Under the pieces are notes generated by a model. The model saw only the letters and a list, made by a program, of their open reading frames with translations. It made no database searches and had not been told where the DNA came from. From Escherichia coli (lineage in GTDB: Bacteria; Pseudomonadota; Gammaproteobacteria; Enterobacterales; Enterobacteriaceae): a stretch of 64,000 bases of DNA. Of the stretch, positions 17,780 to 45,624 are shown one piece after another. Both the position numbers and the translations under genes were made by a program. Each line of letters starts with the position of its first letter. The first letter of the stretch is position 1. The stretch is taken from the NCBI RefSeq assembly GCF_046105845.1, contig NZ_CP151004.1; one strand, given 5' to 3'.

Positions 17780-20203
17780 TTAAACCTTTTCGATCTGGAC
17801 AAGATTGCTGTGCGACGGGTTTCCCTTTGCCAGCGGTGAAGGGCGGTGAGAGGTCAGAATATTGATACTGCCGCCGTGATCGACCCGGTCACCAAACATA
17901 TCCGCTTTAAGCCACGCACCTTGCCCGATGGCGGTAACGCCAGGCAGAATACGCGGAGTCACTTTTGCGGCAATCAGCATTTCTCCATTATTGTTAAATA
18001 CCCGCACGGTATCGCCATGACGGATACCGCGTGCCTGAGCATCAATAGGGTTGATCCACACCTCTTGTGGGCAGGCCTGCTGTAACACATCAATATTGCC
18101 GTAGCTGGAGTGGGTACGCGCTTTGTAGTGGAAGCCCGTTAACTGCAGTGGATAGGTTTTCCGCAGGGGATCGTCCCAGCCATCAAAACCTGGGGTATAC
18201 GCAGGAAGGGGATGAATAATTTCATCTTTTTTCAATTCCCAGGTATCCGCAATCGTCGCCAGTCGTTCAGAATAAATTTCGATTTTCCCCGAAGGTGTTT
18301 TCAACGGGTTTGCCTGTGGATCTTCACGGAATGCGCGGAAAGCGACGTAGTGTTCTTCAGGGCATTTTTTCTTAAAGATCCCGGTCGTTTTCATCTCCTC
18401 GTAGTCGGGCATCTCAGGGTTACGTTCCTTCGTTTTCGCATGGAGATATTTGATCCATTCATGCTGACTGCGGCCTTCAGTAAAGGTTTGATAAACGTCT
18501 GGTCCTAAGCGTTTGGCGACTTCACTCAGCATCCAGTAGATGGGTTTACGTTCAAATTTTGCTGAGGTTGCGGGTTGGGCGAGGATCACATAGCCCATAT
18601 TCCCGGCAGATTCGTGAGAGATAAGGTCTTCTTGCTCTGTTGGCATCAGGTCGGGCAACAGGATATCGCAATACTTAGCCGAGGCAGTCATGAAGTGGTC
18701 AATGCCAACAATCATCTCGCACTTGCTGTCATCCTGAAGCACCTCATGGGTGTGATTGATGTCGCCATGTTGATTGATCAATGTGTTACTGGCGTAGCAC
18801 CATAAAAACTTGATGGGGACATCCAGTTTTTCTTTTCCACGAACACCATCACGGGTCGCGGTCATTTCCGTGCCATGGTCGATGGCATCTGTCCATGTAA
18901 AGACGGAAATCTGCGTTTTAACAGGATTCTCGAGCATCGGGAACCATTCTACCCCCAGATCCCAGCTACCTTCGCGTACACCTGAGTTGCCGCCGTTTAT
19001 GCCGACGTTACCGGTGAGAACGGAAAGCATGGCAATAGCGCGGGACGTTTGCTCGCCGTTGGAGTGTCGTTGTGGCCCCCAACCCTGACAAATATAGGCA
19101 GGTTTTGCTGAACCGATCTCTCGTGCCAACTGGATAATTTTTTCTGCCGGGATGCTGGTGATTTTTGCTGCCCATTCTGGCGTTTTAGCTATGCCGTCAG
19201 GCCCTTCGCCCAGAATATAGGCTTTATAATGCGCGTTACGTGGAGCGTTGGCGGGCAGCGTTTTTTCATCGTAACCAACACAATATTTGTCGAGAAATGG
19301 CTGATCGACCATGTTTTCAGTAATCAGTACCCAGGCAATCGCACAGGCCAGTGCGCCATCGGTGCCAGGGCGAATGGGCAGCCATTCATCTTCACGTCCG
19401 GCAGCTGTGTCGTTATAACGTGGATCGATGACGATCATGCGTGCATTTGAACGTTCGCGGGCTTGCTCGACGTAGTAAGTGACACCACCGCCGCTCATCC
19501 GCGTTTCTGCCGGGTTATTTCCGAACATAACGACCAGCTTCGTATTGGCGATATCATCCGGGCTGTTGCCATCATTGGCACCGAACATATAACTCATTGC
19601 GGCACTGATCTGTGCGGTACTGTAGCTGCCATAGCGACTGAGAAAACCACCGCAAGAGTTCATCAGACGGTACGGGACGTTTGAGTTGGTGATGTTTCCG
19701 CCATCCACGCCTGTTCCATAGAGAACATGTACAGCCTCATTGCCGTAATCTTTTAGGATCCGCCGAAGATTATCACTGATGGTATCCAGGGCTTCGTCCC
19801 AACTTATCCGTTCAAATTTACCTTCACCGCGCTTGCCGACGCGCTTCATGGGATATTTCAACCTATCAGGATGATTCATCCGTCGACGGATAGAGCGCCC
19901 GCGTAAACACGCTCGAACCTGATGATTACCGTAGACGTCGTCTCCTGTCGTATCAGACTCAACCCAGTACACGGTGTCATCTTTCACATGCAAACGTAAC
20001 AGACAGCGGCTCCCGCAGTTAACGGTGCAGGAACTCCAGACCGCTTTCTCTTCTACCGGTGTCTCTGCCGCTCGGACCATTTGGGAAAATGGCAGAGTGA
20101 AAGCACTGCTTGCCAGCGCGAGACTGCCAAGTGCGGAGGTTTTCATCAGACTTCTACGGCTGATTTCAGCCTTCATGAGCGCCTCTGTGGTATGGATTTT
20201 CAT
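17780..20203 (-). CDS. ynfF: Tat-exported molybdopterin oxidoreductase catalytic subunit (DmsA paralogue)
   Basis: 807 aa from the second Met; twin-arginine motif SRRSLMKT, N-terminal Cys cluster CTVNCGSRC, molybdopterin-binding domains; highly similar to the adjacent ynfE product. Confidence 0.92.
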   Translation of the reverse strand: MKIHTTEALMKAEISRRSLMKTSALGSLALASSAFTLPFSQMVRAAETPVEEKAVWSSCTVNCGSRCLLRLHVKDDTVYWVESDTTGDDVYGNHQVRACLRGRSIRRRMNHPDRLKYPMKRVGKRGEGKFERISWDEALDTISDNLRRILKDYGNEAVHVLYGTGVDGGNITNSNVPYRLMNSCGGFLSRYGSYSTAQISAAMSYMFGANDGNSPDDIANTKLVVMFGNNPAETRMSGGGVTYYVEQARERSNARMIVIDPRYNDTAAGREDEWLPIRPGTDGALACAIAWVLITENMVDQPFLDKYCVGYDEKTLPANAPRNAHYKAYILGEGPDGIAKTPEWAAKITSIPAEKIIQLAREIGSAKPAYICQGWGPQRHSNGEQTSRAIAMLSVLTGNVGINGGNSGVREGSWDLGVEWFPMLENPVKTQISVFTWTDAIDHGTEMTATRDGVRGKEKLDVPIKFLWCYASNTLINQHGDINHTHEVLQDDSKCEMIVGIDHFMTASAKYCDILLPDLMPTEQEDLISHESAGNMGYVILAQPATSAKFERKPIYWMLSEVAKRLGPDVYQTFTEGRSQHEWIKYLHAKTKERNPEMPDYEEMKTTGIFKKKCPEEHYVAFRAFREDPQANPLKTPSGKIEIYSERLATIADTWELKKDEIIHPLPAYTPGFDGWDDPLRKTYPLQLTGFHYKARTHSSYGNIDVLQQACPQEVWINPIDAQARGIRHGDTVRVFNNNGEMLIAAKVTPRILPGVTAIGQGAWLKADMFGDRVDHGGSINILTSHRPSPLAKGNPSHSNLVQIEKV

Positions 20204-20263
20204 CATTACTCACTTATTGCTTTTCAAACAAAATGTCATGCCAGAATTTATGGTTGTAGTGGG

Positions 20264-22690
20264 TTATATTTTTTCGATCTCGACCAGATTAGTGTGCTGC
20301 GGGTTTCCCTTCGCCAGTGGTGAAGGGCGCAGAGTGGTTAGCGTATTCACACAGCCGCCATGGTCGATTTTATCGCCAGACATATTGGCCTCGTGCCAGG
20401 CTCCCTGGCCCATAGCGCTAACCCCAGGGAGAATGCGTGGTGTCACTTTGGCTGGTAGCCGAACTTCGCCACGATGGTTATACACCCGCACCATATCGCC
20501 GTTGGCAATCCCACGTTTCTGTGCGTCTATAGGGTTGATCCACACCTCCTGACGGCAGGCATCCTTCAGGACATCAATGTTGCCGTAGGTCGAGTGAGTA
20601 CGGGATTTGTAATGGAAACCAAACAGTTGCAGTGGAAAGGTACTACGTTCAGGGGAGTCCCAGCCTTCAAAGGTTGAGGCATAAACCGGCAGTGGGCTTA
20701 TCACTTCATCTTTTTCCAGTTCCCAGGTACGGGCAATTTCCGCCAGCTTGCTGGAATAAATTTCAATCTTACCGGAAGGCGTTTTAAGTGGATTTGCCTC
20801 GGGGTCGTCACGAAATGCTTTGTAGGCGACAAAATGACCATTAGGATCTTTACGCTTATAGATACCCATTTTTTTCAGTTCGTCGTAAGACGGTAACGCC
20901 GGATCTTTGGCAAGCATTTTGGCGTACAGATGTTGTAACCATTGTTCCTGCGTGCGACCTTCTGTGAACTTTTGATAGACGTCAGGTCCAAGACGTTTCG
21001 CGACCTCACTCAGGATCCAGTAAATCGGTTTGCGTTCGAATTTTTCGCTGGTGACTGGCTGAAGGAAAATGAGATATCCCATGTTACCGGCGTAGTCGTT
21101 AGGAATAATATCTTCCTGCTCAACGGTCATCAGGTCTGGCAGCAGAATGTCGGCATATTTTGCCGATGAGGTCATAAAGTTTTCGATGACCACAATCATT
21201 TCGCATTTCGATTCGTCCTGCAGAATTTCATGCGTTTTGTTGATGTCAGAATGCTGATTAACCAGGGTATTTCCCGCGTAGTTCCAGATGAACTTAATGG
21301 GCACATCCAGTTTATCTTTGCCGCGGACGCCGTCGCGGATTGCCGTCATTTGCGGGCCATGATCGATAGCATCCGTCCAGCTGAAGCAGGAGATTGACGT
21401 TTTAACCGGATTATCCAGCACCGGCAGGCGTTCTATGGTAATGGTATAGGTCGATTCACGCGCGCCACTATTTCCGCCGCTGATGCCGACATTGCCCGTC
21501 AAAATAGGCAACATCGCAATAGCGCGTGCAGTCAGTTCGCCGTTTGCCTGGCGTTGCGGCCCCCAGCCCTGGCAGATATAAGCGGGTTTTGCTGTGCCAA
21601 TTTCACGCGCCAGTTTGATGATACGGTCCACCGGGATACCGGTAATTTGCGAAGCCCACTGCGGCGTTTTCGCTGTTTTATCGTCACCTTCACCAAGAAT
21701 ATAGGCTTTATAGTGACCATTTTTTGGTGCATCTGCGGGTAAGGTTTTTTCGTCATAGCCGACGCAGTATTTATCGAGAAAAGGTTGATCAACGAGATTT
21801 TCGTTAATCAATACCCAGGCAATACCCGCAACCAGCGCGGCATCGGTGCCCGGGCGAATAGGAAGCCATTCATCTTCACGACCAGCAGCCGTATCGGTAT
21901 ATCGCGGATCGATAACAATCATTTTGGCGTTCGATTTCTCGCGCGCTTTTTCAAGAAGATAAGTGATGCCACCGCCGCTCATGCGGGTTTCTGCCGGGTT
22001 GTTACCAAACATCACGACCAGCTTGCTGTTTTCAATATCCGTGGTGCTGTTGCCATCATTACTGCCGTAGGTGTAGGGCATGGCACAGGAAATTTGCGCG
22101 GTGCTGTAGGAGCCATACTGATTGAGTGAACCGCCGTAGCAGTTCATCAGGCGTTTGACCGCCGAGGCTGATGGCGAAGAGCGGGTCATATTGCCGCCAA
22201 CAATCCCCGAAGAGTACTGAATATATACAGCCTCATTGCCATATTGTTCGACGGTTTTTTTCAGGCTACTGGCGATAGTATCCAGGGCTTCATCCCAGCT
22301 AATCCGTTCGAATTTGCCTTCGCCGCGTTTGCCCACGCGTTTCATTGGGTAATTCAAGCGATCGGGATGATTAATACGCCGACGGATGGAGCGACCGCGC
22401 AAACAGGCACGTACTTGATGATTGCCATACTCGTCGTTGCCGGTGTTGTCAGTTTCCACCCAGGTCACTTCATTATCTTTAACATGCAGACGAAGTGCAC
22501 AGCGGCTACCACAGTTGACGGAACAGGCACCCCAGACCACTTTTTCGCTGGCCTGTTGTACCGCTGCCGCTGCACTGCGCAGGGTGAACGGTAAAGAAAA
22601 ACCGCCTGCAGCCAGCGCCAGAGAACCTATCGCGGTAGATTTAACGAGTGTTCTGCGGCTGATGCCCACCATTTGTTCATTTTTGGACAT
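20264..22690 (-). CDS. ynfE: Tat-exported molybdopterin oxidoreductase catalytic subunit (selenate reductase-associated DmsA paralogue)
   Basis: 808 aa; twin-arginine motif SRRTLVKS, Cys cluster CSVNCGSRC; tandem paralogue of ynfF. Confidence 0.92.
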   Translation of the reverse strand: MSKNEQMVGISRRTLVKSTAIGSLALAAGGFSLPFTLRSAAAAVQQASEKVVWGACSVNCGSRCALRLHVKDNEVTWVETDNTGNDEYGNHQVRACLRGRSIRRRINHPDRLNYPMKRVGKRGEGKFERISWDEALDTIASSLKKTVEQYGNEAVYIQYSSGIVGGNMTRSSPSASAVKRLMNCYGGSLNQYGSYSTAQISCAMPYTYGSNDGNSTTDIENSKLVVMFGNNPAETRMSGGGITYLLEKAREKSNAKMIVIDPRYTDTAAGREDEWLPIRPGTDAALVAGIAWVLINENLVDQPFLDKYCVGYDEKTLPADAPKNGHYKAYILGEGDDKTAKTPQWASQITGIPVDRIIKLAREIGTAKPAYICQGWGPQRQANGELTARAIAMLPILTGNVGISGGNSGARESTYTITIERLPVLDNPVKTSISCFSWTDAIDHGPQMTAIRDGVRGKDKLDVPIKFIWNYAGNTLVNQHSDINKTHEILQDESKCEMIVVIENFMTSSAKYADILLPDLMTVEQEDIIPNDYAGNMGYLIFLQPVTSEKFERKPIYWILSEVAKRLGPDVYQKFTEGRTQEQWLQHLYAKMLAKDPALPSYDELKKMGIYKRKDPNGHFVAYKAFRDDPEANPLKTPSGKIEIYSSKLAEIARTWELEKDEVISPLPVYASTFEGWDSPERSTFPLQLFGFHYKSRTHSTYGNIDVLKDACRQEVWINPIDAQKRGIANGDMVRVYNHRGEVRLPAKVTPRILPGVSAMGQGAWHEANMSGDKIDHGGCVNTLTTLRPSPLAKGNPQHTNLVEIEKI

Positions 22691-22789
22691 AACTCACTCC
22701 CTGTTCTTTATCGTTATATAAAAGTTTATATATTGAATATTTAGCGCGCTAACAATAGAGGGAGTCTACCTATTTTGGGTTAAGAATTA

Positions 22790-22803
22790 TTAATCCATAT
22801 CAA
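22790..22803. promoter_or_regulatory. FNR-like site upstream of ynfE
   Basis: TTAATccatATCAA (one mismatch to TTGAT-N4-ATCAA) about 100 bp upstream of the ynfE start; ynfEFGH is anaerobically induced per literature recall. Confidence 0.3.
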
Positions 22804-22888
22804 TAGAAGGGTATGAGTAATAAGGTGGGATTATGTTGTATGTTCAAATCGCCGGATGTGTCGTATCCAGCGTGCAGTCGATAATGTA

Positions 22889-23194
22889 TTACTGCGGTTC
22901 GGCAGGCGCGCCATCCTGGGTAGACTGCGCGGGAGCAGAGACGTTACCGCTGGTGGTGCGGGTGTAGAGAATTTTATGCGTATCATTAGCGCAATGCCCG
23001 ACGACCTGGGAATCAGGCTGATCAACCTGGTCATTGGGTACAATACTTAACGTGAAGCTGCTTTCGGGTACGCCATTATTGATAATGCGCTGTGATATAT
23101 CGCTCTGTATGCGCTCACAGGATCCCGGCGCGGCGAGTACCGCGGGTGAGGCGAGGGCGAGCAGAAGCGCGGCACAGCAGGTTGAGAGTTTCAT
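22889..23194 (-). CDS. ynfD: Small secreted DUF1161-family protein
   Basis: Start trimmed to ATG at 23192-23194 (MKLSTCCAALLLALASPAVLA signal peptide) with TAAGGAG RBS 6 nt upstream; 101 aa. ORF track begins at 23236. Confidence 0.8.
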   Translation of the reverse strand: MKLSTCCAALLLALASPAVLAAPGSCERIQSDISQRIINNGVPESSFTLSIVPNDQVDQPDSQVVGHCANDTHKILYTRTTSGNVSAPAQSTQDGAPAEPQ

Positions 23195-23301
23195 CATAAG
23201 CTCCTTACGCGAAGATAACTTCTTTAAGCATAGCATTTAACGTGTAAAGTACTGTATTTGCTACTATGATTGAGAATCATCTCTACTCTCTGGTGACTGT
23301 T

Positions 23302-24012
23302 GTGAAATACAAATTACTGCCATGCTTACTCGCGATATTCCTCACAGGATGTGACCGCACAGAGGTAACACTTTCATTTACCCCTGAGATGGCCAGTTTC
23401 TCTAATGAATTCGATTTTGATCCGCTGCGTGGTCCGGTAAAAGATTTCACTCAGACATTAATGGATGAGCAAGGTGAAGTGACGAAACGTGTTTCGGGGA
23501 CTTTGTCGGAAGAAGGCTGTTTTGATTCACTCGAATTACTGGATCTGGAAAATAATACCGTGGTTGCCCTGGTACTGGACGCCAATTATTACCGTGATGC
23601 CCAGACACTGGAGAAAAGAGTTCGTTTGCAGGGAAAATGCCAGCTAGCAGAATTACCTTCTGCAGGGGTGAGTTGGGAAACCGATGATAATGGCTTTGTG
23701 ATTAAAGCCAGCAGCAAACAGATGCAGATGGAATATCGCTATGATGATCAGGGTTATCCGCTGGGTAAAACCACGAAAAGTAACGACAAAACATTATCTG
23801 TTAGCGCTACGCCATCAACGGATCCGATCAAAAAATTAGATTACACAGCGGTTACTTTACTGAATAATCAAAGGGTTGGTAATGTAAAACAGAGCTGTGA
23901 ATATGACAGTCACGCCAATCCGGTGGACTGTCAGCTAATCATTGTTGATGAAGGAGTAAAACCCGCCGTCGAACGGGTTTACACCATCAAAAATACTATC
24001 GATTATTATTAA
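23302..24012 (+). CDS. ynfC: UPF0257-family lipoprotein
   Basis: GTG start at 23302 gives MKYKLLPCLLAIFLTGC with lipobox LTGC, 236 aa. ORF track begins at ATG 23266, which would add 12 residues. Confidence 0.8.
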   Translation: MKYKLLPCLLAIFLTGCDRTEVTLSFTPEMASFSNEFDFDPLRGPVKDFTQTLMDEQGEVTKRVSGTLSEEGCFDSLELLDLENNTVVALVLDANYYRDAQTLEKRVRLQGKCQLAELPSAGVSWETDDNGFVIKASSKQMQMEYRYDDQGYPLGKTTKSNDKTLSVSATPSTDPIKKLDYTAVTLLNNQRVGNVKQSCEYDSHANPVDCQLIIVDEGVKPAVERVYTIKNTIDYY

Positions 24013-27920: not shown

Positions 27921-29288
27921 ATGACAATAGAAAAACACGAAAGAAGCACTAAGGATTTGGTGAAAGCAGCAGTATCGGGATGGCTGGGCACTGCGCTTGA
28001 ATTTATGGATTTCCAGTTATATTCGCTCGGCGCAGCGTTAGTGTTTCATGAAATATTTTTTCCTGAATCATCAACGGCAATGGCGTTAATTCTGGCAATG
28101 GGAACCTACGGTGCAGGTTATGTGGCGCGTATTGTCGGAGCATTTATTTTCGGCAAAATGGGCGACAGAATCGGGCGTAAAAAAGTGCTCTTTATTACCA
28201 TCACTATGATGGGGATCTGTACCACCTTAATTGGTGTGCTGCCGACCTATGCACAAATTGGTGTGTTTGCGCCAATTTTGCTGGTGACGCTGCGTATTAT
28301 TCAGGGGCTGGGGGCAGGCGCGGAAATTTCCGGTGCCGGCACGATGCTGGCGGAATATGCACCAAAAGGTAAGCGCGGAATTATCTCCTCATTTGTGGCT
28401 ATGGGAACTAACTGCGGAACCTTAAGCGCAACGGCAATCTGGGCCTTTATGTTCTTCATTCTCAGTAAAGAAGAACTGCTGGCGTGGGGATGGCGTATAC
28501 CGTTCCTGGCGAGCGTTGTCGTGATGGTCTTTGCTATCTGGTTGCGTATGAATCTGAAAGAAAGCCCGGTCTTTGAGAAGGTTAACGACAGCAACCAACC
28601 GACAGCAAAACCTGCACCTGCTGGTAGCATGTTCCAGAGCAAATCCTTCTGGCTGGCAACAGGGCTGCGTTTTGGTCAGGCTGGTAACTCCGGTTTAATT
28701 CAGACTTTCCTTGCAGGCTATTTAGTACAGACGTTATTGTTTAACAAAGCAATTCCAACAGATGCATTGATGATCAGTTCGATTCTCGGCTTTATGACCA
28801 TTCCGTTCCTTGGTTGGTTATCCGATAAAATTGGTCGCCGGATCCCGTATATTATTATGAATACCTCCGCGATTGTGCTGGCATGGCCAATGCTTTCTAT
28901 CATCGTAGATAAAAGCTATGCCCCGAGCACCATTATGGTTGCACTGATTGTGATTCATAACTGTGCGGTGCTGGGATTATTTGCTCTGGAAAACATTACC
29001 ATGGCAGAAATGTTCGGCTGTAAAAACCGCTTTACCCGGATGGCTATTTCTAAAGAAATTGGTGGTCTTATCGCTTCCGGTTTTGGTCCTATTCTGGCGG
29101 GTATTTTCTGCACCATGACGGAATCCTGGTATCCGATCGCCATTATGATCATGGCATATTCAGTGATTGGTTTAATCTCTGCGCTGAAAATGCCAGAAGT
29201 GAAAGACCGTGATTTAAGTGCGCTGGAAGACGCTGCGGAAGATCAACCGCGTGTTGTCAGAGCTGCGCAACCTTCCAGAAGTCTTTAA
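27921..29288 (+). CDS. ydfJ: MFS metabolite:H+ symporter-family transporter (full length)
   Basis: Uninterrupted 455-aa 12-TM ORF directly downstream of rspB; in K-12 (from memory) this gene is split by the Qin prophage. Confidence 0.88.
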   Translation: MTIEKHERSTKDLVKAAVSGWLGTALEFMDFQLYSLGAALVFHEIFFPESSTAMALILAMGTYGAGYVARIVGAFIFGKMGDRIGRKKVLFITITMMGICTTLIGVLPTYAQIGVFAPILLVTLRIIQGLGAGAEISGAGTMLAEYAPKGKRGIISSFVAMGTNCGTLSATAIWAFMFFILSKEELLAWGWRIPFLASVVVMVFAIWLRMNLKESPVFEKVNDSNQPTAKPAPAGSMFQSKSFWLATGLRFGQAGNSGLIQTFLAGYLVQTLLFNKAIPTDALMISSILGFMTIPFLGWLSDKIGRRIPYIIMNTSAIVLAWPMLSIIVDKSYAPSTIMVALIVIHNCAVLGLFALENITMAEMFGCKNRFTRMAISKEIGGLIASGFGPILAGIFCTMTESWYPIAIMIMAYSVIGLISALKMPEVKDRDLSALEDAAEDQPRVVRAAQPSRSL

Positions 29289-30872: not shown

Positions 30873-31076
30873 TTAGTTCATGCCGAGACGAATCAGGTCC
30901 AGAGGTGCCAGTTTCTCTTCACAACCTTCAACAACTACGGTTTTTCCGCGGCGGATTTGCTCAGCGGTCAGACCTTCAGTATCAATCGACAGGATCTTGC
31001 CAGTGTGACCGGTGCCGCTAACCATAACACGGCTGCCAGTGGTGATTGCGTTACGGTTACGATCGTAGGTCGTCAT
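30873..31076 (-). CDS. ydfZ: Small DUF1471-related protein YdfZ
   Basis: 67-aa [70 protein letters not shown]; matches YdfZ as recalled. Confidence 0.85.
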
Positions 31077-31157: not shown

Positions 31158-31171
31158 TTGTTTTTGATCAA
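31158..31171. promoter_or_regulatory. FNR-like site upstream of ydfZ
   Basis: TTGTTtttgATCAA (one mismatch to the FNR consensus), centred about 88 bp upstream of the ydfZ start; ydfZ is strongly FNR-activated per literature recall. Confidence 0.4.
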
Positions 31172-31252
31172 GCTCACATCTTTTTTGATGCATGCATGAG
31201 CCATAAGGCGGGGGGAAAGACTCTCACCCCGGATGGGATGAGAGGAAATGAA

Positions 31253-42210: not shown

Positions 42211-45349
<3,139 letters not shown>

Positions 45350-45405: not shown

Positions 45406-45624
45406 CTACATAGCGTGTTGATTATAATAGGGCACGCCGAGCGCATCCGACTTATCACTGCCAGTACCCATGTGATTTAAATCAAACGGTGGTTGTTCCT
45501 GCGATGGGGGAACAACCACGACATTGGCACAGGAAGTAACAACCTGCTGCGTGGTTTGTTCCGCAATGCCCTGCGTGGAAAAGAGAATAAACGCAGCTGC
45601 TATTGCGGATAAAAGTGGTTTCAT
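45406..45624 (-). CDS. marB: Multiple antibiotic resistance protein MarB (periplasmic)
   Basis: 72-aa ORF with signal peptide MKPLLSAIAAAFILFSTQGIA; last gene of marRAB. Confidence 0.9.
   Translation of the reverse strand: MKPLLSAIAAAFILFSTQGIAEQTTQQVVTSCANVVVVPPSQEQPPFDLNHMGTGSDKSDALGVPYYNQHAM

Follow-up and report, generated by a model that had tools for sequence, protein, structure and literature searches.

The FNR operator of the ynfEFGH-dmsD promoter in Escherichia coli, with a candidate ModE-type operator in its leader

The ynfEFGH-dmsD operon of Escherichia coli, which encodes a selenate/DMSO reductase, raises the question of what switches it on when oxygen is absent, and whether a short inverted repeat in front of ynfE is the DNA element responsible. 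A sequence-only reading had pointed to a 14-mer at 22790-22803, with one mismatch to the FNR consensus and about 100 bp from the ynfE start, and had proposed that it serves anaerobic activation of the operon by FNR. The window, by which is meant the whole stretch of 64,000 nucleotides that was analysed, is E. coli chromosome in the opposite orientation to K-12. Of 5,426 complete E. coli genomes, 5,388 have a match to its region 22000-23600, with identity reaching 99.8%, and the RefSeq annotation of a 99.8% identical genome names the genes there as ynfE, ynfD and ynfC, with the order of the locus in such genomes being ynfC, ynfD, ynfE-F-G-H, dmsD. The elements that define the locus are as follows.

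20264-22690, minus strand: ynfE coding sequence, 808 aa, ATG at 22690, with the Tat signal SRRTLVK; first gene of ynfE-ynfF-ynfG-ynfH-dmsD
17780-20206, minus strand: ynfF, after ynfE on the same strand and followed by ynfG, ynfH and dmsD
22850-22872, minus strand: 8-bp hairpin CGCUGGAU...AUCCGGCG, then AUUUG, directly after the ynfD stop codon
22790-22803, minus strand: FNR binding site TTGATATGGATTAA, centre 22796.5, one mismatch to TTGAT-N4-ATCAA

The interval 22691-22888 is exactly the spacer between ynfD, which is co-directional with ynfE and ends at 22889, about 86 bp upstream of the FNR site, and ynfE itself. It is 198 bp long, as is the spacer of K-12 MG1655, and 65% A+T. Six single-base differences separate it from K-12: five fall in or near the hairpin after ynfD and one in the right heptamer of a NarL-type repeat, whilst the FNR site is unchanged. 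This hairpin (-11.5 kcal/mol, z = -2.9) looks like a weak terminator-like or REP-like element between ynfD and the ynfE promoter, and was not called by the terminator scan.

At 22790-22803 the plus strand reads TTAATCCATATCAA and the ynfE strand reads TTGATATGGATTAA, the sole mismatch being G3 to A in the former, which is C12 to T in the latter. Both the string and the mismatch count that had been claimed are correct, and the distance of about 100 bp measures 100-113 nt upstream of the ynfE ATG, or 106.5 nt from the centre of the site. Whilst position and sequence were given rightly, the minus strand on which gene and promoter lie had been left unnamed, an omission that changes nothing because the site is near-palindromic.

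It is apparent that this site has been mapped before. In K-12 the ynfEFGH-dmsD operon is listed as directly FNR-activated (category 1), with an FNR ChIP-seq peak at ynfE, summit 1,656,036, that holds one FNR motif at -40.5 from the transcription start (Myers 2013, PMC3688515). Table S6 of the same work gives the motif as TTGATATGGATTAA at 1655980, marked '+' for a ChIP-seq peak, with a PatSer score of 13.01 that is over the published threshold. The same 14-mer starts at 1,657,956 in NC_000913.3, an offset of 1,976 from the Myers coordinate that equals the known shift between the two K-12 genome versions at this locus; the published site is thus the identical 14-mer at the homologous position, and does not lie elsewhere.

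Activation by FNR is equally well documented in K-12. The supplement of Myers 2013 (PMC3688515) gives an expression ratio of 0.027 for ynfE, and of 0.026-0.058 for ynfE to ynfH, read here as fnr mutant over wild type, and this reading, a roughly 37-fold drop of ynfE without fnr, agrees in direction with the operon being called 'Activated'. The sigma-70 ChIP peak at ynfE is essentially anaerobic-only, at 27 aerobically and 709 anaerobically (Myers 2013, PMC3688515), and a published ynfE promoter reporter responds only under anaerobic conditions. Three other papers describe the ynfE promoter as FNR-activated with reference to Xu 2009, and one of them adds that phospho-NarL represses it (Xu 2009, as cited in PMC6561318). 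The anaerobic activation that had been proposed from the letters alone is therefore borne out in K-12 by the direct activation call, the ChIP peak, the expression ratio and the anaerobic sigma-70 peak.

The start sites in the table of Myers 2013 (PMC3688515) were taken from EcoCyc or from Kim 2012, and the Kim 2012 supplement text that was covered does not mention ynfE. The ynfE start most likely comes from EcoCyc, whose own source we assume to be Xu, Busby and Browning 2009. The ChIP, start-site and expression data all concern K-12, and what is contributed here is statistics and conservation over about 70 species. FNR occupancy, fnr dependence, the -40.5 geometry and NarL repression are thus published for K-12, whose FNR-site sequence is identical in this strain; what we infer is the exact place of NarL binding, the -10 hexamer, the point at which transcription begins in this strain and, as a possibility, an input from ModE.

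With the start transferred from the published -40.5, the promoter can be laid out as below.

22767-22782, minus strand: NarL/NarP-type 7-2-7 inverted repeat TAACCCA-AA-ATAGGTA, centre at about -18.5, the probable site of nitrate repression
22763-22768, minus strand: putative -10-like hexamer TAGACT, 4/6 to TATAAT, its TA shared with the GTA of the NarL repeat
22756, minus strand: probable transcription start (A), from the published -40.5, 6 nt downstream of TAGACT, giving a leader of 66 nt
22742-22756, minus strand: conserved block ATTGTTAGC at the probable start, of which AT[TC][AG]TTAGC is kept across genera
22697-22701, minus strand: Shine-Dalgarno sequence GGGAG, 6 nt before the ATG, with GGAGTGAG nearly invariant across genera

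The hexamer TAGACT lies 28.5-33.5 bp downstream of the centre of the FNR site, and the promoter has no match to a -35 element. A consensus scan of 22600-23000 on both strands found neither a stand-alone sigma-70 promoter nor a terminator in the interval; such an absence of a consensus promoter is expected because the promoter is activator-dependent, so the scan is uninformative rather than negative. Within E. coli the block ATTGTTAGC belongs to a perfect 12-bp palindrome, TTAGCGCGCTAA (22742-22753).

The NarL-type repeat has a right heptamer that fits AKRRGTA perfectly and a left heptamer with two mismatches (consensus TACYYMT, 2-bp spacer). Within the window the 7-2-7 pattern at two mismatches or fewer was found 4 times against 3.08 expected, which is not significant alone. 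It is probable that 22767-22782 is the NarL site of the published nitrate repression. The base at 22771 differs from K-12, such that the right heptamer, ATAGGTA here, is ATGGGTA there and in the majority of the strains sampled, and AKRRGTA accommodates either form.

Taken together, we hold with high confidence that the ynfEFGH-dmsD promoter, on the minus strand, is a sigma-70 promoter of the class II, activator-dependent kind, and that 22790-22803 is its one FNR operator. FNR bound at about -41 in a class II promoter contacts the alpha subunits of RNA polymerase and region 4 of sigma-70. In the absence of oxygen, dimeric [4Fe-4S]-FNR would bind TTGATATGGATTAA, whose centre precedes the start (at about 22756) by 40.5 bp, and would recruit RNA polymerase to a promoter with a weak -10 (TAGACT) and no -35, the missing -35 being compensated because FNR contacts alpha and sigma-70 region 4. 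In the presence of nitrate, phospho-NarL would repress from the TAC-N10-GTA repeat (22767-22782 being the most likely site); a NarL dimer seated around -18.5 would cover both the spacer and the -10, and this occlusion would explain the published nitrate repression.

It might be asked whether FNR binds here in some other capacity, either as a class I activator serving a more distant start downstream, or in repression or as a roadblock related to read-through from ynfD. The arrangement of the genes lends this some plausibility, as ynfD is co-directional, ends about 86 bp upstream and is separated from the site by the weak hairpin alone, and the start in this strain is carried over from its K-12 position. 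The published position of -40.5 argues otherwise, as the site is at -41.5 +/- 4 in 19 of the 23 FNR-activated promoters whose start is known (Myers 2013, PMC3688515) and -40.5, with +1 at 22756 transferred to this strain, falls within that band. Thus the mapped start is compatible with the site. In addition the operon is activated and not repressed, sigma-70 occupancy rises anaerobically, and in most species the spacing between the site and a -10-like hexamer is constant. A role other than class II activation is considered very unlikely.

A second possibility is that the match is a functionless product of chance, the spacer being AT-rich, with the anaerobic induction of ynfE being indirect or acting through another site. 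The bare consensus offers this view some comfort. At one mismatch or fewer it occurs 6 times in the 64 kb window against 3.48 expected, and 15 of 100 shuffles reach 6, so matches of this kind are statistically unremarkable in the window; the spacer, moreover, is 65% A+T. As the count of such matches is uninformative, a position weight matrix (PWM) built from published bound sites was used instead; it is symmetric and derived from the 62 other ChIP-bound FNR sites of Table S6 of Myers 2013, the ynfE site being left out.

By this matrix the ynfE site scores 13.2 bits and ranks 5 of 63,987 positions in the window, and the second-best position within the spacer reaches 2.4 bits. Scores of the 62 bound sites used for training span 11.6-20.7 bits, so the ynfE site is inside their range, and only 15% of the other bound sites score as low or lower; it is sub-optimal because the C:G pair of ATCAA is missing from its downstream half. 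An equally good site arose in 98 of 20,000 dinucleotide-preserving shuffles of the spacer (P ~0.005). Two of the four positions in the window that outrank it are the two known FNR sites of ydfZ, which indicates that the matrix picks up real sites. Thus 22790-22803 is the only credible FNR site in the spacer, and the scan of the interval that had been suggested as a check on the original claim comes out in its favour.

The neighbourhood of ydfZ is of interest in itself, and its features are these.

31158-31177, upstream of ydfZ: the two published ydfZ FNR sites, TTGATCAAAAACAA and GTGAGCTTGATCAA
30873-31076, minus strand: ydfZ open reading frame
27921-29288: ydfJ, an intact open reading frame of 455 aa

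The FNR sites of ydfZ and ynfE are 8.4 kb apart here and about 29 kb apart in K-12. In K-12 the Qin prophage sits between the two genes, and because the spacing is only 8.4 kb this prophage is apparently absent here. An inversion of ydfZ relative to ynfE, as compared with K-12, was considered and rejected, as ydfZ is the minus-strand open reading frame at 30873-31076 and not a plus-strand frame of equal length. Further strong matches to the FNR matrix lie at 45472-45485 and 44097-44110 (17.7 and 14.3 bits). The first of these, on its other strand, is a 14-mer equal to the site of Myers 2013 'within marB', which is unbound in vivo, and such a match illustrates that occupancy is not predictable from motif strength alone.

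Conservation bears further on the matter of chance. Within E. coli, seven diverse strains with an intact site (K-12, O157:H7, Nissle 1917, three with 94.9-95.4% spacer identity, and the window) all share the 14-mer unchanged, while bases a few positions away vary. Among the 5,293 genomes with the spacer, 5,031 contain an exact 28-30-mer across the FNR site, and the 71-bp promoter region is disrupted in only 6 of the 5,293.

Beyond E. coli, a protein-anchored scan with one genome per species gave 80 loci that encode YnfE/SrnA orthologues (79-97% identical), from which 77 upstream regions were usable; synteny with ynfD, ynfC and speG holds for Klebsiella pneumoniae at least. The motif TTGA-N7-TAA is present upstream in 68 of these 77 species, at 90-110 bp from the start codon in most and at ~130-230 bp in roughly a dozen. 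Within the 68, the pattern TA(C/A)-N10-GTA is found in 57, centred 22-23 bp downstream of the FNR centre, with a -10-like TAnnnT that begins in the GTA; the -10 column reads TAAACT, TAGACT or TAACAC across genera. In an alignment of 31 sequences the columns without variation are those of TTGA and TAA in the FNR site, of the GTA, of part of the ATTRTTAGC block at the start site, and of the Shine-Dalgarno sequence. From this comparison the phylogenetic footprint reads as that of an FNR-activated, putatively NarL-repressible core promoter.

Against an accidental match there stand, therefore, a site that in K-12 is bound in ChIP and is the sole motif in its peak, a spacer with no comparable runner-up, and a motif kept in most species at a mostly similar distance from the gene and invariant in E. 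coli amid varying neighbours. The idea of a chance match is effectively refuted, and we regard it as most improbable.

Two clinical isolates carry insertion sequences inside the FNR site. In E. coli 2022S01-140-18 (L007, 1480-1510) ISEcp1 has its left inverted repeat abutting GATTAA, and in E. coli CREC_5 (L094, 1100-2520) IS2 has duplicated its target ATGTG within the four central bases. These two independent insertions part the TTGAT half from the promoter, and ynfE should be uncoupled from FNR in both.

That another protein of the CRP/FNR family, such as CRP, is the main binder is the least probable reading of all: CRP and FNR sites do share a 5-4-5 geometry (within 22 bp) and a TGA core, but the T before that core is the base that separates FNR sites from CRP sites, the left half here is TTGAT with TTGA and not GTGA, and CRP was rejected on this half-site together with the FNR ChIP-seq occupancy and the ~37-fold fnr dependence that are published.

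The FNR operator of a class II promoter thus remains the preferred reading of 22790-22803. That FNR occupies this site and acts through it in anaerobic activation is already known from work published between 2009 and 2013, and the main use of the result is as a positive control, in that a reading from sequence alone hit a real regulatory site at its exact coordinates. Two small additions can be made, a conserved non-consensus downstream half-site and a conserved ModE-type operator in the leader. The first concerns the promoter-proximal half of the FNR site (22790-22794 here), which across the 68 species reads ATTAA in 33, GATAA in 19, GTTAA in 10 and other sequences in 6, with the consensus ATCAA in none, while the distal TTGA half is invariant. 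The conservation of a non-consensus half-site among the Enterobacteriaceae sampled suggests that its weakness may be selected, or may be constrained by overlap with the promoter.

The second addition lies in the leader. An RNA element there, such as a Moco riboswitch, was considered and rejected, as the fold of the 69-nt leader is no better than that of its shuffles (z = 0.45) and an Rfam scan of 22500-23100 gave nothing beyond a viral BTE at 19.4 bits, well short of its gathering score of 45. The leader does hold the following DNA element.

22712-22735, minus strand: ModE-type operator CAATATAT-AAACTTT-TATATAACG, in the ynfE leader, centre at about +33.5

The published rule for ModE operators is TATAT-N7-TAYAT. 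The pattern used here, CGnTATAT-N7-TAYATAnCG, was derived from that rule and from the K-12 operators of modA, moaA and dmsA, with mismatches in K-12 of 0 for modA, 0 for moaA, 1 for dmsA and 1 for ynfE. The modA operator of K-12 is CGTTATAT-TGTCGCC-TACATAACG and that of moaA is CGCTATAT-ACATGAT-TACATAGCG. The ynfE site, with its one mismatch, is the only locus in the window within two mismatches of the pattern (0.06 expected), and it matches on both strands.

Altogether 11 species from the genera Escherichia, Citrobacter, Salmonella and Intestinirhabdus have a ModE-type site at the same place, centred 32-33 bp ahead of the ATG and often a better palindrome (CGCTATAGATATCAATATATAGCG); it is absent from the Enterobacter, Klebsiella, Kluyvera and Kosakonia leaders scanned. 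As background, the remaining sequence of these loci, 319 kb in all, contains one match at three mismatches or fewer. Amongst E. coli strains the half-sites are invariant, with a single polymorphism in the 7-bp spacer between them. A literature search of partial coverage found no link between ModE and ynfE, and an earlier listing may exist.

It is possible that this ModE-type operator is a third input at the ynfE promoter beside FNR and NarL, and the claim that it is both functional and not already described is put forward tentatively, as one that we think more doubtful than probable. If true, synthesis of this molybdoenzyme would be tied to molybdate supply, as at the leader of the paralogous dmsA, and the operator could bring molybdate control to a promoter that now serves as the trigger of a gut biosensor.

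The closest known system is the K-12 ynfEFGHI (ynfEFGH-dmsD) promoter (Xu, Busby and Browning 2009, J Bacteriol 191:3172; Myers 2013), which is the same locus, FNR-activated and NarL-repressed, with an identical FNR 14-mer, spacer length of 198 bp, -10, leader and Shine-Dalgarno sequence; the window differs from it at the six spacer bases. The dmsABC operon of E. coli, which encodes the paralogous DMSO reductase and for which control by FNR and ModE has been reported, also has a class II FNR site, at -41.5, followed by NarL heptamers, and its long leader likewise contains a ModE-type operator with one mismatch, CGATGTATACAAGCCTATATAGCG. It is unlike ynfE in the sequence of its FNR site, TTGATACCGAACAA, in a leader of about 136 nt as against 66 nt, in a ModE-type centre at about +51 as against +33, and in the arrangement of its NarL heptamers, with the positions of the dmsA elements deduced from the sequence.

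A third system is the selenate reductase operon srnABCD of Enterobacter cloacae, which is orthologous and whose srnA FNR site, ttgatgaggattaa, was annotated independently (PMC12724226). Its site, about 100 bp upstream, likewise follows the pattern TTGA...ATTAA, in which the downstream half departs from the consensus. It differs from ynfE in the four central bases of the FNR site and in having one catalytic gene in place of the ynfE/ynfF pair, and the Enterobacter leader, unlike that of ynfE, is without a ModE-type operator.
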